From a virus (taxonomy: Duplodnaviria > Caudoviricetes): a stretch of DNA of 52,525 nt. The stretch is from the IMG/VR virus record IMGVR_UViG_3300037524_000555, positions 1-52,525 of that record; one strand, given 5' to 3'. Every line of letters starts with the position of its first letter. Positions within the stretch are counted from its first letter, which is position 1. Shown here one piece after another: positions 287-51,081 of the stretch. The position numbers and the translations under genes were made by a program. A model generated the notes under the pieces. That model did not search any database. It saw nothing but the letters and a program-made list of their open reading frames with translations, and was not told where the DNA came from.

Positions 287-558
287 GGCTTGTTCCTTTC
301 ATGCAGGCGCTCGTGACGTTCGATGAACGGGCGAGGGTCTGGGTCTTTCTTGTGCCAGTCCAGCGGCAGGTCGTGGGCTATGGCGAAGCACATGGCTGTC
401 AGATCCTCAGGGGCATAGACCTTGCGCCACTTGTAGATGGTCGACTGGTGCACATTGTGCAGGCGTGCTGCTTCCTTCACACCCATGGTTTCGGCGTCCA
501 GCATGATGGCCACTCGCGTCTCATCGGCGAGGCCGTAGTCAGGGTGAAGTGTGGTCAT
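283..558 (-). CDS. helix-turn-helix DNA-binding protein
   Basis: GVKEAARLHNVHQSTIYKWRK is a typical HTH pattern; GAGG SD. Confidence 0.7.
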   Translation of the reverse strand: MTTLHPDYGLADETRVAIMLDAETMGVKEAARLHNVHQSTIYKWRKVYAPEDLTAMCFAIAHDLPLDWHKKDPDPRPFIERHERLHERNKP

Positions 559-561
559 GGC

Positions 562-735
562 TTACCTCGGACCTGCGTGGATGATGGCCTTCGCCTGCAC
601 GAGTGCGCCCACGACGGCACCCTTGGCCGTGAGGATCTCGTTGTCGCTCCATGTGCCGGTGTCGAAGGCCATCACGGCCCTTACCTCGGCAATGGCCTCG
701 CGCAGAAACTTCTCGGTGATGCTTCCGGTGGTCAT
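562..735 (-). CDS. 57-aa hypothetical early protein (not in ORF track)
   Basis: Read manually: MTTGSITEKFLREAIAEVRAVMAFDTG...HAGPR*; AAAGGAACAAGACC-ATG; fills the gap between neighbours. Confidence 0.7.
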   Translation of the reverse strand: MTTGSITEKFLREAIAEVRAVMAFDTGTWSDNEILTAKGAVVGALVQAKAIIHAGPR

Positions 736-769
736 GGTCTTGTTCCTTTCTTGGTTGCTAGGACGCGTC

Positions 770-1207
770 CTAGCGTTTCATTTCGATGACGGGCAGGCCA
801 TGCTTCACGGCAGCGTCGCGCAAGGCGGCATCCTTGCCTGCCCCGATGACGTCGCTGATGCTGCGAACCCCGGCCACGCGGCGCTCCTCGTGGATCACCA
901 GCACACGGAAGTTGTCGTAGAGGCCTCGCGTGATGCGCAGCACGGCGCGCCCGTCGGTGGCCGGGCAGGTCTCGATCGCGTCGTTGCCACAGACATAGCT
1001 GTTCGTCCCCATGGAACGCACGAGCAGGAAGAAGGTCTCACCCTCGGCGAGGCCCGCGGCGCGCGTCGCGTCATAGAGGAGATCCGAGTGGTAGGCGTCC
1101 TCGGCCATGAAGGGCAGGGCCTTGTGGGCAATGGCGTTGAACGCGTTGCGGAAGGCATCGGACTGCACGATAGCCTCGGCGGTGACTGTGAGCTTGATCT
1201 TCATCAT
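770..1207 (-). CDS. hypothetical early protein
   Basis: Start MMKIKL after AACCAAGGAACCAGACC; stop TAG lies inside palindrome 757-774. Confidence 0.7.
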   Translation of the reverse strand: MMKIKLTVTAEAIVQSDAFRNAFNAIAHKALPFMAEDAYHSDLLYDATRAAGLAEGETFFLLVRSMGTNSYVCGNDAIETCPATDGRAVLRITRGLYDNFRVLVIHEERRVAGVRSISDVIGAGKDAALRDAAVKHGLPVIEMKR

Positions 1208-1285
1208 GGTCTGGTTCCTTGGTTGCGATGTGGGCTTGGCCCGGGTGGTCACGGCCTTGGCCGTGGGGTGGTGCTAGGACGCGTC

Positions 1286-1861
1286 CTAGCAGGTTGCTCC
1301 GGCGTGGCCGGAAGTGAGAAACTCGACGGTTATGTCGCAGCACAGGCAGGGCAGCGCACCGTATTCCATACCCTCGTGGCCTTGGTCGTGGGCAACCTCG
1401 CGGCTCACCCGGCGCAGCTTGAAGGGACCGAACTCGCGCTGCATGTCCGCGCTCCAGCGGCGGTAAGCCTCGGCAATGTCCGCCGTCGTGTCGACGGGCA
1501 GGTTCAGGAGCATGTGCGCCCAGTCGATCGGGCACGAGAGCGTCAGCATGTCATCGCTTTCGGCGTCGGTGCTAGGACACGTCCTAGCGGGCGGGCCATA
1601 GGCCGGCACCGAGCTTCTCGGCTCGTAATCCACGCCCCAGCGATGTGGGTTGGTCGTGGGCTGTGCGATGGTATCGAAGCGCTTGGTCAACTCGACAGGC
1701 GGAAGCTGCACTGTCATCGGCGTGGTGTAGCGTGGGCGCGGGGCGCGGATGTGAGGCACGACCTTCGTGCTCTTGACCGGCTTCGACTTCGAGAAAGTCT
1801 GGAAGCGCAGCACTTGCACGTCACTCGCAGCGATCAGGTTCCGCAGTTCTTCCTTCGTCAT
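1286..1861 (-). CDS. hypothetical early protein, possibly a fusion of two units
   Basis: Start MTKEELR after AACCAAGGACCAAGGCC; in-frame internal palindrome (ARTCPS); stop TAG inside palindrome 1273-1290. Confidence 0.55.
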   Translation of the reverse strand: MTKEELRNLIAASDVQVLRFQTFSKSKPVKSTKVVPHIRAPRPRYTTPMTVQLPPVELTKRFDTIAQPTTNPHRWGVDYEPRSSVPAYGPPARTCPSTDAESDDMLTLSCPIDWAHMLLNLPVDTTADIAEAYRRWSADMQREFGPFKLRRVSREVAHDQGHEGMEYGALPCLCCDITVEFLTSGHAGATC

Positions 1862-1986
1862 GGCCTTGGTCCTTGGTTGCAGTGCTAGGACGCGTCCTAG
1901 CAAGGGGTCTTCGTTGGCGGCGCTAGGACGCGTCCTAGCAGGCAGAATGCGGGCAGGGTTCCCCCTTCCGCGCCGTTTTTCTTTTT

Positions 1987-12984: not shown

Positions 12985-13018
12985 CCTTGCCGTTCCGAAA
13001 CTGAACGGAGGATGAGAA

Positions 13019-13639
13019 ATGGCAACTGTTGCCTCTCCCTACGGTCTTCGTCCGGTCCGCCGGGCGGATGGGATGCCCTACGCGGGCTCCACGACCATGT
13101 ACCTCATCGACCCTGCCGGTGAAGCGACCAACCTGTTCTACGGGCAGGTCGTCCATCTCGGCAACGATGGGTATATCGCACTGTCGACCGCCACCGGCGC
13201 CGACGGCACCACCAACGCGCTACCGACGGGCGGCACCCTCACTGGCTCCATCGGGGTCTTTGTCGGATGCGAGTACGTCAACGCGCAAGGCCAGCTGATC
13301 CACTCGCAGATGTATCCTTCGGGCTACGCTGCTCCGGCGGGGACGCAGATCAAGGCCTATGTGATCGACGACCCCAACGTGCTGTTCCAAGCTCAGCTGG
13401 ACGGCTCGGGTGCTCAGACGATCATCGGGACCAACACCTTCTTCGCTGCGGCTCAGTCGACCTCGACTGGCAACACGCGCACGGGTGTGTCCACCTCGGC
13501 TCTGGAAAGCACTGTCGTGACCACGACCGCCGCCTTCCGGATCGTCGGGCACGTTTCGCCGACCACGGACGCCTTCGTTGACGTTCTGGTCAAATTCAAC
13601 CCGGGCTATCACAGCCTGACCAACGCTGTTGGTCTGTAA
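13019..13639 (+). CDS. putative capsid decoration/cement protein
   Basis: PYGLRPV, GVFVGCEY, VIDDPNVLF; immediately before major capsid gene. Confidence 0.7.
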   Translation: MATVASPYGLRPVRRADGMPYAGSTTMYLIDPAGEATNLFYGQVVHLGNDGYIALSTATGADGTTNALPTGGTLTGSIGVFVGCEYVNAQGQLIHSQMYPSGYAAPAGTQIKAYVIDDPNVLFQAQLDGSGAQTIIGTNTFFAAAQSTSTGNTRTGVSTSALESTVVTTTAAFRIVGHVSPTTDAFVDVLVKFNPGYHSLTNAVGL

Positions 13640-13651
13640 GGAGGGCTGAGC

Positions 13652-14557
13652 ATGGCAATTTCGCGCGCACAACTTCTCAAGGAGCTGCTGCCCGGGCTGA
13701 ACGCGCTGTTCGGTCTCGAGTACGGCAAGTATGAGAACGAGCACTCGGAAATCTACGAGACGGAGAACTCCGATCGCTCCTTCGAGGAAGAGCAGAAGCT
13801 TTCGGGCTTCGGCGCGGCCCCGGTGAAGCAGGAAGGGCAAGCCATCTCGTATGACAACGCACAGGAAGCCTACACGGCTCGCTATGTGCACGAGACGGTG
13901 GCGATGGGCTTCTCCATCACCGAGGAGGCCATGGAGGACAACCTCTATGACTCCCTGTCCAGCCGCTACACCAAGGCGCTGGCCCGGGCTATGGCCTACA
14001 CCAAGCAGGTGAAGGCTGCCGCCCTGCTGAACAACGGCTTCACCTCGTTCAACTCGGGCGACGGTGTGACCCTGTTCGCGACCAACCACCCGACCGTGGA
14101 AGGCGTCACCAACGCCAACCGCCCGACGGTTGCGATCGACCTGAACGAAACCGCCCTCGAAGACGCAGTGATCAACATCGCTGCATATGTCGACGAGCGT
14201 GGCCTGCTGATCGCGGCTCGCCCGCGCAAGCTGATCGTTCCGCCGTCGCTGATGTTCGTTGCCACCCGCCTTCTGCAGACTGAAATGCGGACCGGCACCT
14301 CCGACAACGACATCAACGCGCTGAAGTCCAACGGGTCGATCCCCGAGGGCTACCGCGTGAACCACTACCTGACTGACCCGGACGCGTGGTTCATCACCAC
14401 CGACATCCCGAACGGCATGAAGCACTTCGTGCGGACCGCGATGTCGACTGGAATGGACGGGGACTTTGACACTGGAAATGTGCGCTACAAAGCAAGAGAG
14501 CGTTATTCCTTTGGCGTGTCAGATCCGTTGGGCATGTACGGGAGCCCTGGGGCCTGA
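13652..14557 (+). CDS. major capsid protein
   Basis: MAISRAQLLKELLPGLNALFG, PRKLIVPP, YLTDPDAWF, RYKARERYSFG; strong codon bias. Confidence 0.92.
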   Translation: MAISRAQLLKELLPGLNALFGLEYGKYENEHSEIYETENSDRSFEEEQKLSGFGAAPVKQEGQAISYDNAQEAYTARYVHETVAMGFSITEEAMEDNLYDSLSSRYTKALARAMAYTKQVKAAALLNNGFTSFNSGDGVTLFATNHPTVEGVTNANRPTVAIDLNETALEDAVINIAAYVDERGLLIAARPRKLIVPPSLMFVATRLLQTEMRTGTSDNDINALKSNGSIPEGYRVNHYLTDPDAWFITTDIPNGMKHFVRTAMSTGMDGDFDTGNVRYKARERYSFGVSDPLGMYGSPGA

Positions 14558-14571
14558 GTTACGTTTACGGT

Positions 14572-14630
14572 TGACACCGTAGACTACTCAAGGATAAAGA
14601 AAGGGGGCGGGGCAACTCGCCCCCTTTCGC
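14572..14630 (+). promoter_or_regulatory. candidate promoter plus GC hairpin before the endonuclease gene
   Basis: TTGACA-17 bp-TAAAGA; hairpin AAAGGGGGCG-GGGCAACT-CGCCCCCTTT. Confidence 0.5.
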
Positions 14631-14642
14631 ATTGGAGACATC

Positions 14643-15254
14643 ATGCTCAGAAAAGCCAAGCGCCCCGAGGACTGGGGCCAACGAGAAAAGCACCCGCTCT
14701 ACGGATTGTGGGGGTGGCACAAATACAGGAACCGATACGGCATGGTCCCGGAGTGGGCCTCGGACTTCTGGGCCTTCGTTCGCGGCGTCGGGGAACGTCC
14801 TTCAGACGAGCACCGGCTGCGCAGGCACGAGATAACGCAGCCTATCGGGCCGGACAACTTCTTCTGGGACACCAAGTACGCCCCGGGGTCCAACGAGAAG
14901 AACAGCTTGGAGCAGCGTGCCGCCTACATGCGGGAGTACCGAAAGCGTCGTCCGCGCAATGTGCGTGACGTGGAGCTCAGGCGCAGCTATGGGATAGGTC
15001 TTTCGGAATGGGAGGCAATGTACGCGGCGCAGGGCGGCAAGTGCGCGGTGTGCCGGTCATGCGAGACTGAGAAGAGCCAGAGGTATGCCAACCTAGCGGT
15101 CGACCACTGCCACACCACCGGAAAGGTCCGCGGCCTGCTGTGCAATGCGTGCAACCGGGCTATCGGATTTTTCAACGACGACCCCTCCAAGTTGCGCGCT
15201 GCCGCAGACTATCTCGAGCGCGGAGTGTTACCCGTATCAAATGTCGGAGGTTGA
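14643..15254 (+). CDS. free-standing endonuclease VII-type (HNH) homing endonuclease
   Basis: YGI...QGGKCAVC...LAVDHCHTTGKVRGLLCNACNRAIGFF.D......AADYL. Confidence 0.88.
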   Translation: MLRKAKRPEDWGQREKHPLYGLWGWHKYRNRYGMVPEWASDFWAFVRGVGERPSDEHRLRRHEITQPIGPDNFFWDTKYAPGSNEKNSLEQRAAYMREYRKRRPRNVRDVELRRSYGIGLSEWEAMYAAQGGKCAVCRSCETEKSQRYANLAVDHCHTTGKVRGLLCNACNRAIGFFNDDPSKLRAAADYLERGVLPVSNVGG

Positions 15255-15286
15255 CAGCCCCTAACCTCCCCGGCTATGTTGCCGGC

Positions 15287-15358
15287 AGGTCTCCTCCCAA
15301 CGGGCCTCCTTTCTCCTTTGATGCTACCGAAAAGGGCCCGTTCGAGCGGGCCCTTTTC
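15287..15358 (+). ncRNA. candidate anti-SD small RNA with own promoter and terminator
   Basis: TTGACA-18-TATGTT at 15251-15280; AGGTC-TCCTCCCAACG-GGCCT hairpin; CU-rich tract; terminator. Confidence 0.5.
15330..15358 (+). terminator. rho-independent terminator, potentially bidirectional
   Basis: AAAAGGGCCCG-TTCGAG-CGGGCCCTTTT. Confidence 0.85.
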
Positions 15359-15439
15359 ACTTGTGCGTCTGTGTGTTAGAGTGCCAGCATCCCTGACAGC
15401 TGCATCCTGCAGCTGACCCAACCCAGACAGGAGATTGCA

Positions 15440-15673
15440 ATGGGTACTTCGAGCTTCAGCGGCCCCGTGAACTCTGCCGCAGGCTTTGTCGGCGACCTCG
15501 TCGGCGCGGTCAAACTGCCCGCCTACACCGTCGCCACTGCCCCGTCGGCTTCTGCCGCAGGTGCTGGCGCCACCATCTATGTGTCGAACGGCGCTGCTGG
15601 TGCTCCGACCGTTGCCGTGTCTAACGGGACCAACTGGATCGGCTCCAACGGCATCGCCATCGCGATCGCGTAA
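15440..15673 (+). CDS. small putative virion protein
   Basis: MGTSSFSGPV start, AGGAG SD, Ala/Gly/Thr-rich. Confidence 0.75.
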   Translation: MGTSSFSGPVNSAAGFVGDLVGAVKLPAYTVATAPSASAAGAGATIYVSNGAAGAPTVAVSNGTNWIGSNGIAIAIA

Positions 15674-15681
15674 GGACAGCC

Positions 15682-15816
15682 ATGAAAAACGTCATCAACT
15701 GGCAGCCCGCGAGCCCCGAAGAACTTGCCGCGCGAGGCGTGAAGCCCGCGGCACCGGCCAAGAAGACGGTCAGTGTCAAGGCTTCGGCCACCGTGACCAA
15801 GAAGTCGCAGGAGTGA
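15682..15816 (+). CDS. 44-aa basic hypothetical protein (not in ORF track)
   Basis: AAGGA SD; MKNVINWQPASPEELAARGVKPAAPAKK... Confidence 0.55.
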   Translation: MKNVINWQPASPEELAARGVKPAAPAKKTVSVKASATVTKKSQE

Positions 15817-15965
15817 GCAGTGGCCCGGAAATCCATCTCCGGGACCTCGCCCACTTCGCCAACTCGAAAGGCTCGCCCCTTTGTTCCAAAGCGGGAGCAG
15901 GGGGCGACCGTCGAGAAGGGCTCCACGGGTAAGACGAAGCCAACCAAGCCGAAAAGGAAGGCCAA

Positions 15966-16238
15966 ATGACCGTCATGAATGCCACTGCCAAGCGGTTCAC
16001 CACGACCGGCGCGTGCGGGGTCGGGCGGGCCCGGCTCGCCACTATCCACGTCGTGGCCTCTGGTGCCGCGCGCTTGACGATTGCGGAAGGTGCCGCCGGG
16101 CCGACCAAGCTCGACATCGACTTTGGTGCCGCTGGCACCTTCACGGTCGACATGCCGGGCGACGGGATCATCTTCTCGCAGGATCCGCGCATCGCCACCC
16201 TGACCGCCATCACGTCCGTCAACCTCATCTTCATCTGA
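15966..16238 (+). CDS. small putative virion protein
   Basis: 90 aa, AGGAAGG SD, MPGDGIIF motif. Confidence 0.7.
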   Translation: MTVMNATAKRFTTTGACGVGRARLATIHVVASGAARLTIAEGAAGPTKLDIDFGAAGTFTVDMPGDGIIFSQDPRIATLTAITSVNLIFI

Positions 16239-16248
16239 GGTGTGACAA

Positions 16249-17010
16249 ATGGCGACGATCGTCACCCGTGCTGGCAAGGGCTCGGAGCTCACACACGCTG
16301 AGCTCGATGCCAACTTCACGAACCTTGCGGCGGATGTCGCCACTCTGAACGATTTGCATTGGTGGAACGAGCAGCGTGGAGGGTTTCACGCCCCGTGGAC
16401 AGGAACAGCCATCGCCAGCGGCACAAACAATACCGCTCTACCCTCCGTCCGGCCATCCTATATGCCCGGCGGCGTCTTTATCCGCTCGAACACGACCATC
16501 AACGGCGGGTATCGCTATAACGCGTCCCTGTTCAGCAGCTTCGGCACGCTGTCTCAGAAGATGACCTGCCAGTTCATGTGGCTGACGAGCTTTACCGGTC
16601 GGATCGGGCTGATCGGGTGGCAACAGGCCACAACGTCAATTGATCCAGCGACGAACTACGTCGCGGGCTTCTACCAGAACGGGGACCAGCTCGTGGGTCG
16701 CTGCTGGAACGGGGCTAACAAGATCGACACGTCGGCCTATACCCTGTCGCTGAGCACGCCCTACACGTTCCACATCGACTGCGCGGCCGATCGGTCAGCT
16801 GTGCGGTTCCGGGTCTACGCGGGTTCAACGATGGCGCAGGTCTTCGACCAATCAATCACCAACGGCATCTACATCGTGGATAACCCGCTCGCCGCACGCC
16901 CTTTTGCGGGGTTCACAGAAGCTTCGACAACGGCCAGCGATATTGGCCTTCTCTACACCCTCGGTCTCGGCACCGTTGAGGGATACGAACGCGCCCGTGG
17001 GCGCCTATAG
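16249..17010 (+). CDS. putative fibre/receptor-binding protein
   Basis: N-terminal MATIVTRAGKGSELTHAELDANFTNL typical of phage fibre anchors; beta-rich C-terminal domain. Confidence 0.6.
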   Translation: MATIVTRAGKGSELTHAELDANFTNLAADVATLNDLHWWNEQRGGFHAPWTGTAIASGTNNTALPSVRPSYMPGGVFIRSNTTINGGYRYNASLFSSFGTLSQKMTCQFMWLTSFTGRIGLIGWQQATTSIDPATNYVAGFYQNGDQLVGRCWNGANKIDTSAYTLSLSTPYTFHIDCAADRSAVRFRVYAGSTMAQVFDQSITNGIYIVDNPLAARPFAGFTEASTTASDIGLLYTLGLGTVEGYERARGRL

Positions 17011-21542: not shown

Positions 21543-24500
21543 ATGCCGATCAGTTATGTAGGCGGCACAGGCGCGGGGATAGCCGGTAAGACCGGCACCA
21601 CGTCTGTCGCCCTCAACAGTGGCCTGACCGGCGGCTCCGGTTCTGGCGTACAGGCTGGCGACCTCGTCATTGTCACCGTCAGCACCGGCACGCAGGCTCG
21701 GGCCCCGACCACTGCCGTCACGGGCTATACAGCCCTCACCGCCCAGCGCACGACCGCGACGACCTACGACACCAACGTGCAGGTGTCGTACAAATTCATG
21801 CCGTCGACCCCGGATACGACGGTCACGATCCCGGCGCCGGGAAACGTCGCAGACGGTCAGGCATATGCGATCCAAGTGTTCCGGGGGGTCGACCCCACGA
21901 CGCCACTGGACGTCACGCCGACCTACGCCACGGGCAGCGGCACGAACAACCTGCCCAACCCGGCATCCATCACACCCACCACGTCCGGGGCGTGGATCGT
22001 GGTCTGCGGTGGCGGCGCGGCGGCGACGGGGGGCACCTACGCTGCGTCCTATCTGACCAACTTCCGCACGTTCAACGGCGCGGACACCAACGACGGCAAC
22101 GTCGGTGTGGGTTACCTGACGTGGACCTCCGGGGCCTACGACCCTGCGGCCTTCACCGGGGGCAGCGCCAACGCCGCCAACTCGTGGGGTGCGACGACCA
22201 TCGCCCTGCGGCCGGCGCCGGCGTCGAACTTCGCCCGCGATGCTGCCATCGCAAGCGCCAGCACAGTCACGGCTGCGGCAACGGTCAGCGCCTCTCCTGT
22301 CGCACCCGTCTCCGCGGTCACCGGCTCCCCGACGATCACCAAGAACGTGACGTTCAATGGCGTGAGCGGCACGGTCTACAAGTGGCTTGGGAACGGCTCC
22401 TTCACCCTCTCGGCATCGTCTGATGTCTACTACCTCGTCGTCGCTGGCGGTGGTGGTGGTGGTGGCGGCCAATACGGGTCCAACGGCGGTGGCGGTGGCG
22501 GTGGCGTCGTTGGCGGGGGGACCGGCGACAAGTACACAGGCACGGCGTCCACCTACACGATCACGGTCGGCACGGGCGGTCTGGGCGGGATCGATAGTGG
22601 GAGCTACACCGCCTCCGCGAACGGCACGAACTCCTCGATCACCGGCACGAATGCACCCACGGCGGCCATTGGCGGCGGCGGCGGTGGTGGCAACGACGGC
22701 ACCGATGCGCCAAACTCGGGCGGCTCGGGCGGCGGCGGCGGTGCAGGCTTCGGCACTACAGGTGTTACGGGCGGGGCAGGGACCGCTGGCCAAGGCTACG
22801 CTGGCGGCGGTTCTGCCACGATCACCAACGGTATTGAAGGCGGCGGCGGCGGGGGCGGTGCTGGTGGCGTAGGCGGCGATGCCGTGAACGCTGAAGGCGA
22901 CTATTTCCCAGACGGCGGCGATGGCGGCATCGGCAAACAGTCCGACATCACAGGAACGGCCACCTATTATGCGGGCGGCGGTGGTGGCACCAAGGGCAGG
23001 GACGACGGCGCTGGCACTTATGGTGATGGGGGTCTTGGCGGCGGCGGTGCCGGTACGTCAGCAGCTGCTGGTATCGCAGGCACGGATGGCCTCGGTGGTG
23101 GTGGCGGTGCCACGGCGGGTGCAGATGTTCGCGGGGGCAAGGGCGGCGACGGCGTCGTCATCATCTTCGTTCCGGCCAGCGGGCCCAACAGCTACCCACG
23201 CGATGCAGCCATCGCATCCGCCTCAACGGTCACTGCCAACCGCACCAACACCAAGCCGCGCGTCGCAGCCGTCGCATCGGCGAGCACGTTCACGGCTGCC
23301 GGGACTGTCTCCAAGGCACGCGTGGCGTCCGTCGCCAGCGCCAGCACCGTCACTGCCACGGCCAAGATCACCCGGGGCCGGGTCGCAGCCGTCGCCAGCG
23401 CCTCCACAGCCACTGCCAACCGGACGATCACCCGGGGCCGGATCGCATCTGTCGCATCGGCAAGCACTGTCACTGCGGTGCGGACGAACACGAAACCCCG
23501 TGTCGCAGCGGTGGCGAGCGCGAGCACTGTTTCCGCGACGGCGACGATCACTCGGGGCCGGGTCGCGGCCATGGCCAGCGCGTCCACGGTCACCGCCGTC
23601 AGGACGAACACCAAGCCCCGCGTGGCGGCCATCGCATCGGCGAGCACTGTCACCGCCTCGGCCACGGTCAGCGCCGGGGGCACTGATTACCCGCGCACGG
23701 CGGACATCGCGAGCACCTCCACGCTCACCGCGGTGCGGACGAACACGAAGCCGCGCGTCGCAGCGGTCGCCTCGGCCAGCACTGTCACGGCGACGGCGAA
23801 GATCACTCGGGGTCGGGTCGCGGCAATCTCGAGCGCCAGCACCGTCACAGCTGTCCGGACGAACACGAAGCCCCGGGTGGCAGCGGTCGCCTCTGCGTCG
23901 ACAGTCACCGCCGTCAGGACGAACACGAAGCCGCGCGTCGCAGCGGTCGCCTCTGCGTCGACGGTCACCGCCGTCAGGACCAACACCAAGCCTCGCGTCG
24001 CAGCTGTCTCCAGTGCGTCGACGGTCACTGTGGTCAGGACCAACACCAAGCCCCGCGTCGCGGCGATTTCGAGCGCCAGCACGGCAACTGCAAACCGATC
24101 GCTCATCCTGAACCGCGTGGCGGCCATCTCCGCTGTCAGCGTCGTCACGGTCGCCAGCGGCGGGAACACCATTGTCTCGGCGACAGGCGTCTCGGCGACC
24201 GGCGGGCTGGGCTCCGCTTCGGCTGTCGGGAACGCTCAGGCAGTTGCGACGGGCGCCGCCGCGACCGGGCAGGTCGGATCCGTTACCACCAGAGGATCTG
24301 CGACAGCTGCAGTGACCGGTGCGGCTGCGACAGGGCAAGTCGGCTCTGTTACCGCAATCATCAGCGTCTCGACGAGTGTTTCCGGAACTGCTGCGACCGG
24401 TCAGGTTGGTTCCGCGACTGCTGCCGGATCAGCTTTGGCCTCAACAACCGGGGTCGCTTCCAGCGGGCAGGTTGGTTCCGCAACGGCATCTGGTGGCGCG

Positions 24501-25340
24501 CGGGCGACGGTCACCGGGCTATCCGGGTCGGGTCATGTCGGCACCGTCTCTGTGCTCACGCCCGGGTCCGAGACCGTGCCGGTCACCGGGGTTGCAGCGA
24601 CTGGCCAAGTCGGCACCGTCTCTGTGGCGACGAGCATCTCCGCGAACGTGGCTGTTTCCGGGGTCTCGTCCGATGGCTTGGTCGGCACGTTGACCGCCAC
24701 CGGCGACGCTCTGGCGACCATGATGGACACCCGGTACGTCGCGCCGGGCTATGTTGAGCCGGGTTACATTCTCGACAGCCCCGGTGTGTCGGTCTTCGTT
24801 GGCGTTGGCTCGGTTGCAACAGAGCTGCTCACGACTGTCGCCGTCACCGGCGCCTCGGCTTCGGGTCAGGTTGGCACCGCCATCGTCCTTGAGGACGCAG
24901 TGTTCTCCGTCACGGGCGTCGAGGCAATTGCCGAAGTCGGACAGGCCTCGGTGCTCATTTCCGAGGACGTCGCGTTCGACGTCACGGGTGTCGAGGCGAT
25001 CAGTGAGGTTGGCGCGGCCACTGCCTATGGGTCAGCTGATGTCGAGCTCTCTGGCGTAAGCGCCGCCTCTTCGGTCGGGCAGGTTTCGCTCTACGTTGAG
25101 GAAAATATCGTTGTCGACCTGAGCGGCGTGTTCTGCACGGGCGGGTCCGGGGCGATCTATTTCTGGGGCTCGGTTGTCCCGCCCGACGGGAATTGGACAC
25201 CTGCGTCTCCGCCGGCCGGCGTCTGGTCACCGCTCGCGCCGGGAGCGGCTCCAGTGTGGACGGATAGCGACCCCTCTGGTATAGATGTCTGGACAGACAT
25301 CACGGTTGGCCCCGGCGGGTGGACCGACATGAACTCGTGA
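21543..25340 (+). CDS. long repetitive fibre-like virion protein with Gly-rich domain
   Basis: 1265 aa; YLVVAGGGGG...GGDGVVII Gly-rich domain; 20-aa repeats; TGxxATGQVG repeats; Trp-spaced C-terminus. Confidence 0.75.
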   Translation: MPISYVGGTGAGIAGKTGTTSVALNSGLTGGSGSGVQAGDLVIVTVSTGTQARAPTTAVTGYTALTAQRTTATTYDTNVQVSYKFMPSTPDTTVTIPAPGNVADGQAYAIQVFRGVDPTTPLDVTPTYATGSGTNNLPNPASITPTTSGAWIVVCGGGAAATGGTYAASYLTNFRTFNGADTNDGNVGVGYLTWTSGAYDPAAFTGGSANAANSWGATTIALRPAPASNFARDAAIASASTVTAAATVSASPVAPVSAVTGSPTITKNVTFNGVSGTVYKWLGNGSFTLSASSDVYYLVVAGGGGGGGGQYGSNGGGGGGGVVGGGTGDKYTGTASTYTITVGTGGLGGIDSGSYTASANGTNSSITGTNAPTAAIGGGGGGGNDGTDAPNSGGSGGGGGAGFGTTGVTGGAGTAGQGYAGGGSATITNGIEGGGGGGGAGGVGGDAVNAEGDYFPDGGDGGIGKQSDITGTATYYAGGGGGTKGRDDGAGTYGDGGLGGGGAGTSAAAGIAGTDGLGGGGGATAGADVRGGKGGDGVVIIFVPASGPNSYPRDAAIASASTVTANRTNTKPRVAAVASASTFTAAGTVSKARVASVASASTVTATAKITRGRVAAVASASTATANRTITRGRIASVASASTVTAVRTNTKPRVAAVASASTVSATATITRGRVAAMASASTVTAVRTNTKPRVAAIASASTVTASATVSAGGTDYPRTADIASTSTLTAVRTNTKPRVAAVASASTVTATAKITRGRVAAISSASTVTAVRTNTKPRVAAVASASTVTAVRTNTKPRVAAVASASTVTAVRTNTKPRVAAVSSASTVTVVRTNTKPRVAAISSASTATANRSLILNRVAAISAVSVVTVASGGNTIVSATGVSATGGLGSASAVGNAQAVATGAAATGQVGSVTTRGSATAAVTGAAATGQVGSVTAIISVSTSVSGTAATGQVGSATAAGSALASTTGVASSGQVGSATASGGARATVTGLSGSGHVGTVSVLTPGSETVPVTGVAATGQVGTVSVATSISANVAVSGVSSDGLVGTLTATGDALATMMDTRYVAPGYVEPGYILDSPGVSVFVGVGSVATELLTTVAVTGASASGQVGTAIVLEDAVFSVTGVEAIAEVGQASVLISEDVAFDVTGVEAISEVGAATAYGSADVELSGVSAASSVGQVSLYVEENIVVDLSGVFCTGGSGAIYFWGSVVPPDGNWTPASPPAGVWSPLAPGAAPVWTDSDPSGIDVWTDITVGPGGWTDMNS
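23195..24150 (+). repeat. 60-bp coding tandem repeats (PRVAAVASASTVTAVRTNTK)
   Basis: GAACACGAAGCC recurs at 60-bp multiples (23741, 23861, 23921). Confidence 0.9.
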
Positions 25341-47264: not shown

Positions 47265-47726
47265 TCACGACTTGCCCGTTTTCCACAAATTGCGGTCGTC
47301 CCACGCCCGGTAATCCCACTCGCCAGAGACCGGGCCCCGCAGGGACGACGAGCCGGATGTCACATAGCCCCCGCTGGAATACGGGTTCAGTGCGCCGACG
47401 CCACCTCCCCCACTGCTGGAGACGCTCATGGTCTGTGCCCGGGCTGCGGCCATACCGGCGTTGACGCCGGCGTCGTAGGTCTTGGCCGAGGTGTCTTTTC
47501 TGATCTCCTGCCACAGGGTGCTCACGAACTCGGGGGACCGCATCACGTCGACGATGAGTGCCGAGATCGCGCCGCGGAGCACGCCCTCAGGCGATGCTGA
47601 CGAGATGGTGCGCTTGAGCGGGTCGCCCTTCACCAAGACATCCACGAGCGCGGCGAGCACTCGCTCTTCCACCTGCATGTTGAGCAGGATGGCTGCTTCG
47701 GAGGGGGTAGGGGTTGGTTCATCCAT
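47265..47726 (-). CDS. hypothetical protein
   Basis: 153 aa, overlaps upstream stop. Confidence 0.6.
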   Translation of the reverse strand: MDEPTPTPSEAAILLNMQVEERVLAALVDVLVKGDPLKRTISSASPEGVLRGAISALIVDVMRSPEFVSTLWQEIRKDTSAKTYDAGVNAGMAAARAQTMSVSSSGGGGVGALNPYSSGGYVTSGSSSLRGPVSGEWDYRAWDDRNLWKTGKS

Positions 47727-48384
47727 TGTGAGGACACTCCGTCACAGGGCAGTGCTTCCGGCACAGGCCCGAGGGTTTGGCGTTCCAGACGCCGCTCTTG
47801 TAGGCTTCCAGCAGCTGGCTGTATTTCCCCAGCCAGTCCGCCCACATAGCCTTGCGCTCCTTGCGGTGATAGGTGCCCTCGATGACGTCCCCGGGGACGA
47901 CAAAGAGGAGCTTGCCGCGCACTTCCTTGATCTCCGGGAACAGCACGAAGATCATCAGCGCCATCAGCCCCAGCTGCCCGGTGTCGGCATAGCGGCTCGA
48001 CTTGCCGGTCTTGTAGTCGATATAGAAGGCCACGCCCTTCTCACGCTGCAGGATGATGAGGTCGCCGATGCCGCGGACGAAACAGTCTTTGGCGAAGAAC
48101 TCGCACGGCTCAAGGCTGGTGTTCAGGGCCATCTTGTGCTCGCACAGGCGCTCGCCCTTGATCCGCAGCAGCGCGTCGAGCACTGGCTTCACATGGCTGA
48201 ACCTCGAGTTCATCTCGACCCCGTCGCGGACATAGTCCTCGCAGGCCTTGTGGAACTCTTCACCGTAGATCGTGGCGGCCGTCGGCTGGCTGACGTAGTC
48301 CTTGACCACCCGGGTGTGGTAGAACTGCTTCGGGCAGGTCAGAAACGTCTTCAGGCTGCTGAAGGACCATGCGGGCATCTTCAT
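47719..48384 (-). CDS. PD-(D/E)XK (Cas4/RecB-like) exonuclease
   Basis: WSFSSL..F..CP, GIGDL, IDYKTGK, QL, C-terminal CRKHCPVTEC. Confidence 0.85.
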   Translation of the reverse strand: MKMPAWSFSSLKTFLTCPKQFYHTRVVKDYVSQPTAATIYGEEFHKACEDYVRDGVEMNSRFSHVKPVLDALLRIKGERLCEHKMALNTSLEPCEFFAKDCFVRGIGDLIILQREKGVAFYIDYKTGKSSRYADTGQLGLMALMIFVLFPEIKEVRGKLLFVVPGDVIEGTYHRKERKAMWADWLGKYSQLLEAYKSGVWNAKPSGLCRKHCPVTECPHNG

Positions 48385-48662
48385 GCTAGCACGTCCACGA
48401 ACAGGTCCAGAGGAGCACCCTCTTTGTCCGGCATGATGATCAGAAATTGTCCGGTCTTGCAGTCGACGCACCGCATCAGGACGTCAACCCGGTGCCGGAA
48501 CATCGCACTGTCACGGTCTTTCGTGATCGTGAGCTCCTCAGGGATGCAGAAGCCGCCACACTTCTTGCACGTCACGTCGTGAGTTCTCCCCGCGCTCAGC
48601 TGCGGTCGCTCGTCCTTGGCTCGAAGAGCCTTGTTGGTCGTTATGCTGCGGCCCATACCCAT
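48381..48662 (-). CDS. Zn-ribbon hypothetical protein
   Basis: CKKCGG...CVDC. Confidence 0.6.
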   Translation of the reverse strand: MGMGRSITTNKALRAKDERPQLSAGRTHDVTCKKCGGFCIPEELTITKDRDSAMFRHRVDVLMRCVDCKTGQFLIIMPDKEGAPLDLFVDVLA

Positions 48663-50533
48663 ACTCCTTTGTGGTTTTCGACGATCTTGCCGGTGTCGCG
48701 CAGTTCAACCCACGCCTTGCTGTTTTTCCGGGGGAGCTTCTCGGTGACCGGTCTCGGCACCGCCCCGATGTCCATCAGGATGCTCTCGGCCTCTGCGATA
48801 TACCACTGGAAATTGAGGTCCAGCGGGAACACTTCCGGGAGATCCATGACCGGCCGCGCGCCCTCTGAGCGCGGGACCATGTTGTTGTTCGTGACGTAGT
48901 GGATGGCGCTCGTCTCCTGCACCGAATAGTACCAGCGGATGGCTCGGCCAATCTCCACGCCGTCCTTGACCGCCCCTCCGTTCACCGTGCGCAGCGTCAG
49001 GAACTTGGTGATGTCCCGGCACGAGCAGACCGTACCTTGGATGGACAGCCCCCGCGTCAGGTAAGCGATCACCGCTTCGTTGCAGATCATGTTCTGCGGG
49101 CTCTTCGCCAGCGACGGCGGGCCGAACGCGCCCTTGGCCTTGACCTTCCCGTCTTCCTTGATCGCGATGTAGTTGTTCACGTCGCGCGAGTAGATCGCCT
49201 TGTAGACAGTCTCTTCCGTCTTCAGGTTGGTGCGCTTCTCCCACGCCGCGATGATGGCGTTGACGTCGTCGCGCAGGGCCCGGGGGCACTTGATCAGGAT
49301 GCCGTCAGTGTTGGCCGAAACCACGGGGACACCGTAGAGCTCCAACGCCTCGATCAGCATGAGGATGGTCAGCTGCCCGGTGATCGTCGTCCTGATCATG
49401 AAGTCCGGCGAGTAGAGCGTGCTGTAGCGGTTCGAGGTCTTCCCGAAGGTGCCGTTGAGAACGATCTTCAGGGAGTTCGACTTGACCATGTCGCCGGCAT
49501 GCTTGGCCGTGAGGCGATCCTCGAGGATGCCACCGTAGACCGGGTTGAAGTGCGACCCGAAGCCGCCCGGCTCCATCTGCATGTTCAGCATCATGCGAGG
49601 ATAGTAGCTCTCCACGTCCCGGTCGATCAGCACGTTCTCCTCATCTGAGAAGTGAGCGACGCTCGTCTCCTGACTGTGCAGCCCCCCGATGCCGATCTTG
49701 TAGCGGCTGTTGCCGATGGTGATGACCATCTTCTCGATCTCGGGCGGCAGGATGACGTGGCCGGTCTTGCTGTCCAGCTCCATGTCCGACGTGCAGATCG
49801 TGTTCAGGGTTTCCCGCAGGGTCTCGGTAGCGAAGCGGATATACTTGGGCGGCTCGTAGCGGAACCGGCTGTAGTCGGGCTTCGTTTTCGGCGGGGTCTC
49901 CCCGGTGCGGCGCTCGAACTCGGCCTTGAGCACCTCTTCCGCAATCTTGGCGTCGGACTTCGAGCGCAGGTCCACGCCATAGGTCTGGCTCATCGTGCGA
50001 CGCAGGTCGACCTGCCCTTCCAGCGCCTTGTAGAGCATCTGGGTGACCTTGAGGTCGTTCTTGCAGTAGCTTCGCAGCAGCGACACCTGCTCGGGCGTGA
50101 TCAGCGCATCGTGCGGGATAGGCAGCTCTTGCAGACGTGGGCTGTGCAGACGCCCGCCGTAGATCTTCAGGCTATGCTGCCCCGGCGCCACATCAATGAG
50201 GTCGATGTGGTTCAGCTTCGGCTCGCGCAGCCCGTGGTTCTTGTAGAAAACCCACGGCTTGATGTTGCGACCGATGATCTCGTCGCTCACGTCCTTGATG
50301 GCGCTCGTGTCCGGGTTGACCATGGCGAATGTCAGCACGGGGATGTCGTAGGTGTTGCCGTTGAAGGTCACCAGCTCCACGTCCTTGGCCTTGATCACGG
50401 CGAGGAGCTCCTCCGGGTCGAAGTTACTCTCGTCGTCGAACATCTCGAAGCGCTTGGTGCGCCCCTCTTCGTTCATGATCAGGGCGAGGAAGTAGTTGCG
50501 GTAGACCTCGATGTCGAGAAAGAGGCGTGTCAC
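48641..50533 (-). CDS. family-B-type DNA polymerase with 3'-5' exonuclease domain
   Basis: GTG start; LDIE, FNGNTYD, YCKND exo motifs; DVESYYP, KIVLNGTFGK, ANTDG polymerase motifs. Confidence 0.88.
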   Translation of the reverse strand: MTRLFLDIEVYRNYFLALIMNEEGRTKRFEMFDDESNFDPEELLAVIKAKDVELVTFNGNTYDIPVLTFAMVNPDTSAIKDVSDEIIGRNIKPWVFYKNHGLREPKLNHIDLIDVAPGQHSLKIYGGRLHSPRLQELPIPHDALITPEQVSLLRSYCKNDLKVTQMLYKALEGQVDLRRTMSQTYGVDLRSKSDAKIAEEVLKAEFERRTGETPPKTKPDYSRFRYEPPKYIRFATETLRETLNTICTSDMELDSKTGHVILPPEIEKMVITIGNSRYKIGIGGLHSQETSVAHFSDEENVLIDRDVESYYPRMMLNMQMEPGGFGSHFNPVYGGILEDRLTAKHAGDMVKSNSLKIVLNGTFGKTSNRYSTLYSPDFMIRTTITGQLTILMLIEALELYGVPVVSANTDGILIKCPRALRDDVNAIIAAWEKRTNLKTEETVYKAIYSRDVNNYIAIKEDGKVKAKGAFGPPSLAKSPQNMICNEAVIAYLTRGLSIQGTVCSCRDITKFLTLRTVNGGAVKDGVEIGRAIRWYYSVQETSAIHYVTNNNMVPRSEGARPVMDLPEVFPLDLNFQWYIAEAESILMDIGAVPRPVTEKLPRKNSKAWVELRDTGKIVENHKGVWVWAAA

Positions 50534-51081
50534 AGAACCCCTCCCATGACCTTGTCGATCTCGATCAGGTGCATCGCCTGCGAGATGGCGTCGTCGAGCG
50601 CGTTGTGGTGCTCGCCCATCCGGACCAGCTCGACCTGAGGGTAGAGCGACTTGATCGTGCGATAGCACCGGTCCTGCCAGAAGGGCCACGGGGCCTTGAT
50701 GCCGGCACGACGATAGGCTTCGGTCAGCATGACGTTGTCGAAGCTGGCGCCATTGCCCCAGACACCCATCGGCTCCCACGGACCGAGCCAGTCCGAGAAG
50801 CGCTGCAAAGCCACCTTTGGCTCGATGCCACGGCGTGTGATGGCTTCACGGGCCTTGTCGCCTTGGCCCAGCCACCAGATGACCGTTTCCGGCTCAATGA
50901 CCGCACCATCGCGCACAGACCACGCAAGGTCGATGACCTCGTAGAATTTGCTGACGATGCCGCCGAGCTGGACTTCACCGTCCTTGTGCTGACGCCACGG
51001 CTGGAATGCCACGGCACCGATGGAGACGACTGGGGAGTTTGGGCGGGTGCCCATGGTTTCGAGGTCGATCATGACGTGCAT
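50530..51081 (-). CDS. DEDD 3'-5' exonuclease
   Basis: MIDLETMG, WGNGASFD, HNALDDA. Confidence 0.88.
   Translation of the reverse strand: MHVMIDLETMGTRPNSPVVSIGAVAFQPWRQHKDGEVQLGGIVSKFYEVIDLAWSVRDGAVIEPETVIWWLGQGDKAREAITRRGIEPKVALQRFSDWLGPWEPMGVWGNGASFDNVMLTEAYRRAGIKAPWPFWQDRCYRTIKSLYPQVELVRMGEHHNALDDAISQAMHLIEIDKVMGGVL

Follow-up and report, generated by a model that had tools for sequence, protein, structure and literature searches.

Virus record IMGVR_UViG_3300037524_000555 (Caudoviricetes; 52.5 kb, completeness estimate 86%) was analysed over its full length of 52,525 nucleotides (nt), referred to here as the window. Its major capsid gene ends in codons that depart from the codon usage of the preceding part of the gene, and an open reading frame (ORF) with an Endonuclease VII motif follows. 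The question raised by this locus is whether the unusual capsid tail and the nuclease gene belong together or are neighbours by chance. A first-pass annotation of the DNA had taken the former view and proposed that the tract at 14447-14554 is the immunised target site of a free-standing homing endonuclease. The comparisons presented here demonstrate that the nuclease gene belongs to an optional block, that the capsid tail is part of this block, and that nuclease genes accompany silently diverged tails across the capsid family. On the basis of these sequence comparisons, the ORF probably encodes a homing endonuclease that is free-standing and of the F-CphI ("DHHRN") kind, the capsid tail would travel with it in a block of ~0.8 kb, and the silent differences in the tail would protect the carrier.

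The capsid tail and the nuclease gene form an optional block

Near-identical DNA from public runs of other studies was compared with the window over positions 13000-16300. Identical pieces spanning the tail and the nuclease gene were present in run X3. Contigs of run X4 showed 2-8 differences each; one covered 14164-14472, where the match ended, and in a second the match resumed at 15270 (8 differences in 347 nt) behind 102 unmatched letters. Thirty of these 102 letters were read: they contain a capsid end of native type (TCG for Ser, then Pro, Gly, Ala and a stop) and a further 14 nt behind it. The match to a contig of run X5 begins exactly at 15270 and that to a contig of run X6 ends at 14472; neither of these two runs covers 14554-14997, and this gap was not counted as absence of the gene. 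Because the strains match the window to 14472 and again from 15270, the optional block was placed at about 14473-15269. For the same reason, the tract proposed in the first-pass annotation has its first 26 nt outside the block, and only the part from 14473 onwards was retained as belonging to it. Two stretches of the window were also searched for as exact words in viral contigs, in order to recover the nuclease-free strain, and no match was obtained.

Further evidence was provided by related loci. The capsid gene of L187, a nuclease carrier, is 95.6% identical to that of L027, in which the slot behind the capsid gene is empty, and also 95.6% identical to that of L029, in which the slot holds a different nuclease-type gene. 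The alignment of L187 with L027 splits ~15 nt before the capsid stop codon and, past the nuclease gene, rejoins where the native terminator lies. Common to the close carriers (the window, L084, L085, L086 and L187) are the five final capsid codons, a stop codon of the TGA type and a two-hairpin leader of 85 nt. Ser 298, encoded by AGC in the window (14543-14545), is AGC, AGT or TGT in all five close carriers, and the codon is TCN in ~96% of 110 empty loci. Locus L028 is 90% L004-like and contains a 47-nt piece of the left end of the block before a leftover native capsid end, with the nuclease gene absent; this insert is probably the footprint of a loss or of a partial conversion.

The nuclease query returned 29 full-length homologues (37-77% identity), of which 28 were located less than 700 nt past a capsid homologue (36-87% identity), the 29th having just 588 nt of upstream sequence. 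Matches confined to the catalytic domain stood behind a capsid gene in 9 of 51 cases and elsewhere in 42. With the capsid as query, the nuclease gene was adjacent in 1 of 160 loci (L187), and PF02945 was found in none of the five complete relatives by a search identical to the one that does find it in the window. The gene is optional and occupies a fixed site between conserved genes, as do free-standing homing systems. The earlier proposal of a free-standing homing-type neighbour was thus upheld by the motif, the patchy presence and the 28/29 placement behind a capsid homologue.

Capsid tails diverge silently where nuclease genes are present

Divergence was measured in 26 independent close locus pairs selected by greedy choice, of which 8 included an insert and 18 were empty-empty. 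Insert pairs showed a divergence of 0.170 over the last 36 codons versus 0.054 over the body of the gene, and empty-empty pairs showed 0.071 versus 0.063; the two kinds of pair differed significantly (one-sided Mann-Whitney p = 0.002). The tail differences are synonymous and set in at codons 263-271 in six pairs. Co-inheritance of the neighbouring gene's flank with the nuclease was therefore observed at two levels, in the insert-pair tail divergence and in the strains whose tail is unmatched from 14473.

Arginine codons gave a corresponding result. The tail has three invariant Arg codons, and in loci of G/C-rich background these were AGR at 15/60 where an insert was present and at 1/63 where the slot was empty (p = 8e-5); grouping of the loci into lineages by hand gave 9/17 versus 1/21 (p = 0.002). 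Gene bodies contained AGR at 2/238 (insert loci) and 0/263 (empty loci), and in the window it is present at none of the 13 capsid Arg codons before codon 266.

Codons ending in A or T (A/T3) were also compared between loci. A first test of the A/T3 shift at nuclease loci (34 versus 73 loci) gave p = 0.67 and was unsound, because the "nuclease-free" set contained carriers of GIY-YIG genes (L069, L038) and of HNH-type genes. After re-classification of the loci, the A/T3 residual test gave p = 0.08, and in G/C-rich backgrounds the mean A/T3 log odds were 0.44 for 20 insert loci versus 0.03 for 23 empty loci (p = 0.03). The top seven A/T3 shifts among 148 classifiable loci all belong to insert-bearing loci, and the window is the highest, with log odds of 1.45 versus at most 0.63 in the 23 empty G/C-rich relatives. 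The first-pass annotation had named nuclease-free relatives with the same codon shift as evidence against its proposal; none was found among those 23 empty loci, L069 and L038 having GIY-YIG genes in the slot. Its use of A/T-ending codons as the signature of the nuclease's allele was abandoned, as was A/T3 richness as a general mark of that allele: in L085, which among nuclease carriers is closest to the window, the A/T3 counts are 8 versus 8, and in L086 they are 14 versus 9. The recoded-tail idea accordingly survives in the tie between tail and nuclease gene, seen in strains and in pair divergence, and not in the A/T3 codons. Conversion asymmetry from the right flanks was rejected as a measure, these flanks being 84-95% identical in close pairs and too unclean for use.

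Codon composition of the capsid 3' end

A recount of the capsid gene agreed exactly with the earlier one: 15 of the last 36 sense codons (from 14447) and 1 of the preceding 36 end in A or T, compared with 53 of 301 in the whole gene. The tail differs significantly from the body (15/36 versus 38/265, Fisher p = 2.4e-4). Fourteen of the 15 A/T-ending codons are located within codons 266-291, while the last ten codons hold one and are again rich in codons ending in G or C (G/C3). The protein motif said to be retained, GNVRYKARERYSFG, is indeed present in the window capsid and is near-invariant among relatives. The "1 of 36" figure overstates the contrast, since G/C3 enrichment of codons 217-264 is a family-wide trait, these codons exceeding the rest of the capsid gene in high-, mid- and low-G+C relatives alike. 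The A/T3 patch is real and locally significant, yet not rare within this genome. The odd codons are best regarded as being mostly the capsid part of the block, a foreign, silently different tail inherited with the nuclease gene.

Far stronger A/T3 patches were observed elsewhere in the record, with 28/36 at codon 42 of the ORF at 48641-50779 (minus strand) and 21/36 in the ORFs at 21543-25340 (plus), 551-1888 (plus) and 47719-48471 (minus). Patches in these four ORFs could be further exchanged segments, or the result of mis-called starts or frames.

The nuclease ORF

The presence of an Endonuclease VII-type gene next to the capsid gene was confirmed: the ORF begins 85 nt past the capsid stop, and PF02945 matches residues 112-192 of 203 (E = 3.4e-25; 88.2 bits versus a cut-off of 23.6). 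Residues C134, C137, D154, H155, H157, R163, C167, C170 and N171 are invariant across 23 aligned homologues, and together they form the catalytic and zinc motif CX2-4C ... D-H-x-H ... R ... CX2C-N. The same motif residues define the F-CphI ("DHHRN") family in Fang et al. 2018 (PMC6083498), according to which the motif is C-terminal in members of the endonuclease clade and N-terminal in resolvases. The motif of the window nuclease is C-terminal.

Among solved relatives, the profile search ranked the sequence-specific Hpy99I first (E = 2.4e-12), with T4 endonuclease VII behind it (5e-8); the latter match spans just residues 12-74 of the 157-residue chain. An AlphaFold model of the nuclease (predicted local distance difference test score, pLDDT, 87) has a beta-beta-alpha-metal fold in its catalytic domain. 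Fold comparison gave Z = 6.2 with a root-mean-square deviation (rmsd) of 4.7 over 85 residues for T4 endonuclease VII (1e7d), and Z = 6.1 with rmsd 3.3 over 77 residues for Hpy99I (3fc3). Foldseek reported a match with a probability of 1.00, yet with E = 2.6e-3. The N-terminal ~110 amino acids (aa) are kept in homologues, with H17, F45, P53, N72 and W75 invariant. No Pfam match was obtained for this part even at E = 10, and a weak match to PHROG 3377 ("HNH endonuclease") was located at residues 33-88. The fold matches listed fall at residues ~103-199 alone, so that the N-terminal domain was hardly probed by these searches.

The A/T3 fraction is 0.23 in the nuclease ORF versus 0.42 in the capsid tail, which ruled out a single uniform foreign block.

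Borders of the slot and neighbouring features

Coordinates of the features discussed are collected in Table 1.

Table 1 Features of the capsid-nuclease locus in the window.
Feature	Position	Strand	Details
Major capsid gene, Mu gpT-like / Phage_capsid_4	13652..14557	+	301 sense codons / 301 aa; ORF list
36 codons preceding the tract	14339..14446	+	1/36 A/T-ending; inside the family-wide G/C3-rich zone (codons 217-264)
A/T3-rich tract proper	14447..14524	+	Codons 266-291, 14/26 A/T-ending; protein unchanged, MDGDFDTGNVRYKARERYSFGVSD
Optional block: capsid tail (last ~28 codons), leader, nuclease gene	about 14473..15269	.	X4, X5, X6 contigs
AGA at invariant Arg 282	14495..14497	+	Codon list
Last five capsid codons and TGA stop	14540..14557	+	Type common to five close nuclease-bearing loci and footprint locus L028
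Leader of the nuclease gene, 85 nt	14558..14642	+	Conserved in five loci; GGAG at 14634-14637
Free-standing nuclease gene	14643..15254	+	203 aa; N-terminal part 14643-14975, Endonuclease VII motif 14976-15218
G+C-rich hairpin, then TTTT	15330..15359	+	Compared with post-capsid hairpins of empty loci
Mu-gpT-DE RNA motif, Rfam RF03012	15391..15442	+	60 bits versus cut-off 49
Next conserved structural gene, right border of slot	15440..15673	+	77 aa, MGTSSFSGP...; ORF list

The capsid protein matches PF25209 (E = 9.8e-14) and PF10124 (E = 3e-10), with Phage_capsid_4 and Mu-like gpT as the Pfam families, and PHROG 371 ("major head protein"). Judged by this protein, the named relatives comprise "Planktothrix phage Pag-Yong1" and "Synechococcus phage MinM2" (73%), the pelagiphages HTVC023P and HTVC027P, the Roseobacter phages CRP-901 and CRP-902, and phage DSL-LC04. 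No very close capsid relative was found, the top identity being 88% among metagenome contigs and 87% among viral contigs.

Two hairpins are predicted in the leader, at ~14557-14585 and 14601-14626, with 19 predicted pairs and one compensatory change. The G+C-rich hairpin behind the nuclease gene looks like the capsid gene's own terminator, pushed downstream. A simple terminator scan made no plus-strand call at these hairpins; 14599-14628 was called, but for the minus strand alone.

The Mu-gpT-DE motif precedes the next structural gene and overlaps its start. Its distance from the capsid stop is 79-125 nt in two empty loci (L004, L010) and the footprint locus L028, and 834 nt in the window, where the nuclease block parts it from the capsid gene, its usual upstream neighbour. 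The block is inserted between the capsid gene and its conserved downstream RNA element.

Other occupants of the slot

The slot was surveyed in 169 loci whose capsid gene has an intact 3' end and reaches 74% identity or more; 21 of these loci had too little downstream sequence. It was empty in 115 of the 169. An Endonuclease VII-motif gene, in one of two architectures, was present in 11 loci, most of them fetched using the nuclease query. GIY-YIG genes with NUMOD3 occupied the slot in 8 loci, a 190-aa type with a PHROG 1035 match and no Pfam match in 5 (L029, L053, L057, L059 and L214), and other genes in 9, including a 500-aa type that matches PHROG 559 ("HNH endonuclease") and PHROG 3339 ("homing endonuclease").

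The second Endonuclease VII architecture, of ~287 aa, begins 50-55 nt past the capsid stop (L087, L090, L091, L094, L095 and L096) and has an extra cysteine-rich N-terminal part (C..C...CRKHY), which in L090 matches PHROG "HNH endonuclease" families. The GIY-YIG genes were found in L040, L196, L069, L038, L031, L064, L047 and L070, most with NUMOD3; the match in L070 is weak and under the Pfam cut-off. AGG at the invariant Arg 284 was observed in the GIY-YIG loci L031, L064 and L069 and in the Endonuclease VII carrier L091. The 500-aa type, found in L183 and L021, has weak DUF723 matches. Small minus-strand ORFs are present in the slot of L229, L083 and L215, one of those in L229 being GNAT acetyltransferase-like; from these reverse-oriented ORFs it follows that the slot accepts non-nuclease cargo too.

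Proposed mechanism and alternative explanations

In a mixed infection, the predicted enzyme would cut relatives without the gene, either in the capsid tail or at the junction that directly follows. Repair off the nuclease-bearing genome would then copy the gene together with the adjoining tail (intronless homing), and the carrier genome would be spared by its silent tail differences, including those at 14495 (AGA in place of CGN) and 14543 (AGC in place of TCN). We infer the cleavage itself, the cut position and the immunity of the carrier from the comparative data.

Several observations weigh against homing with a protective tail. Clustered silent changes near the tail also occur in three empty-empty pairs (L010/L020, L198/L207 and L171/L173), and one insert pair (L030/L188) has none. 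The A/T3 association taken alone is weak (p = 0.03, or 0.04 without the window), the counts in L085 and L086 given above show little or no shift in the closest carriers, and half of the Endonuclease VII carriers have none. The last five codons and the stop are the sole capsid sequence common to the five close nuclease-bearing loci. A donor of the tract was sought in 168 loci and none was found, the maximum identity over codons 266-291 being 82%. The block is compositionally non-uniform, and the tail may therefore have a separate history. The strain evidence consists of short assembled contigs, and assembly drops rare variants. Finally, 36-codon windows with at least 15 A/T3 codons make up 3.9% of the 12,367 such windows in the 28 long ORFs of the record, and they occur in 15 of these 28 ORFs, the capsid gene counted.

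This last frequency would fit a tract that is ordinary local codon heterogeneity and only by chance a neighbour of a mobile nuclease gene. Such an explanation would also fit the family-wide G/C3 richness of the preceding codons, which inflates the contrast, the retention of CGT, a T-ending Arg codon, in the tail across all G+C backgrounds, and the presence in near-identical strains of the tract's initial 26 nt. However, the tract is unmatched in those strains from 14473 on, tail divergence is specific to insert-bearing pairs, AGR is enriched in insert loci, and the six shifts that rank behind that of the window are all insert-bearing as well; heterogeneity is accordingly considered quite unlikely. 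A different history for the tail, in which an earlier occupant of the slot (GIY-YIG or HNH-type) or a module exchange rewrote it and the present nuclease inherited it while cutting elsewhere, for example at the stop-codon junction split by its own insertion, is judged unlikely, though slightly less so. The slot hosts nuclease genes of at least four types; the close relatives L187, L027 and L029 have three different tails, one of the three loci being empty; and AGA 282 is also found in the GIY-YIG locus L040 and in L182. The difference in composition between nuclease ORF and tail, the restriction of shared capsid sequence in the five close carriers to the last five codons, and the location of nuclease genes at exchange boundaries in Barth et al. 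2023 (PMC10448857) are likewise consistent with it. Against it, tail and gene are missing or replaced together in the strains, an observation that is silent on which nuclease wrote the tail.

The protein could, alternatively, serve the phage as a Holliday-junction resolvase among its late genes, in the role of T4 gp49, rather than being selfish. The Endonuclease VII motif itself would be compatible with this, and neither a second PF02945 copy nor RusA was found in the 86%-complete record. Searches of the record for other resolvases found no PF05866, and no PF05367 either, the latter result being uninformative as its control matched nowhere. A needed function would be kept, whereas PF02945 is present in 0/5 complete relatives and a locus with a 95.6%-identical capsid gene lacks the nuclease gene. 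In place of a full-length T4 match with an N-terminal motif, the match is confined to residues 12-74 and the motif is C-terminal; the protein has an extra conserved N-terminal domain, and Seg-like GIY-YIG genes alternate with it in the slot. A resolvase role is thus highly improbable, and a homing endonuclease travelling with its capsid tail is the reading preferred here.

This reading may be extended, tentatively, to several unrelated slot nucleases that converge on one capsid sequence, with an ongoing race of escape by codon switching. The users would be the two Endonuclease VII-motif types, the GIY-YIG/NUMOD3 genes and two HNH-type PHROG families. Their putative conversion tracts share a starting zone of 10-13 codons (262-275) where the invariant MDGDFDTGNVRYKARERY block has its 5' edge, and switches among six-fold degenerate codons (CGN to AGR, TCN to AGY) would alter otherwise invariant first codon positions. 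We regard such convergence as possible rather than probable.

Significance and comparison with known systems

The 29 full-length homologues obtained in one scan add a sizeable uncharacterised clade that occupies a single, readily recognisable slot behind Mu gpT-like capsid genes. Phages with the slot are widespread in aquatic and soil environments. Strains with and without the gene exist in nature that are near-identical in other respects, and they provide ready substrates for questions of cut site and of protection by silent recoding. The 3' ends of the capsid marker gene in this group are mosaics, which matters for capsid-based phylogeny and diversity counts.

The catalytic core matches Hpy99I (3fc3) and T4 endonuclease VII (1e7d) by both profile and fold. 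Unlike these enzymes, the window nuclease has no methylase partner, lacks the C-terminal part of the resolvase and has a different N-terminal domain. Intronless homing in phage T4 reportedly involves SegF (gene 56), SegG (gene 32) and MobE (nrdB); a paper on co-conversion by SegG is cited in PMC10448857. As in those systems, an optional nuclease gene lies between conserved genes and the flank of the neighbouring gene is inherited with it. The T4 enzymes are GIY-YIG or HNH nucleases, whereas the fold here is different, and the evidence here is comparative and drawn from uncultured phages.

Homing-type genes cluster beside essential genes, including capsid genes, and mark exchange boundaries in Barth, Dunham and Seed 2023 (PMC10448857). 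In contrast to the T5orf172 and IPA-HNH families treated there, the genes described here belong to an Endonuclease VII-motif clade and occupy one slot behind Mu gpT-like capsid genes. F-CphI of cyanophage S-PM2, given as the sole characterised Endonuclease VII-motif homing endonuclease in PMC6083498, where the concept of intronless homing is also stated, is the closest parallel: it too has a C-terminal CxxC...DHxH...R...CxxCN motif and is optional and free-standing beside a conserved gene. The two have no sequence relationship outside the motif, and the partner is the capsid gene here and psbA for F-CphI. No intron shields the carrier gene here, and such protection would have to come from silent tail differences or from the insertion as such. 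Taken as a whole, the capsid-nuclease locus appears to be a clear example from nature of intronless homing, a process already known.

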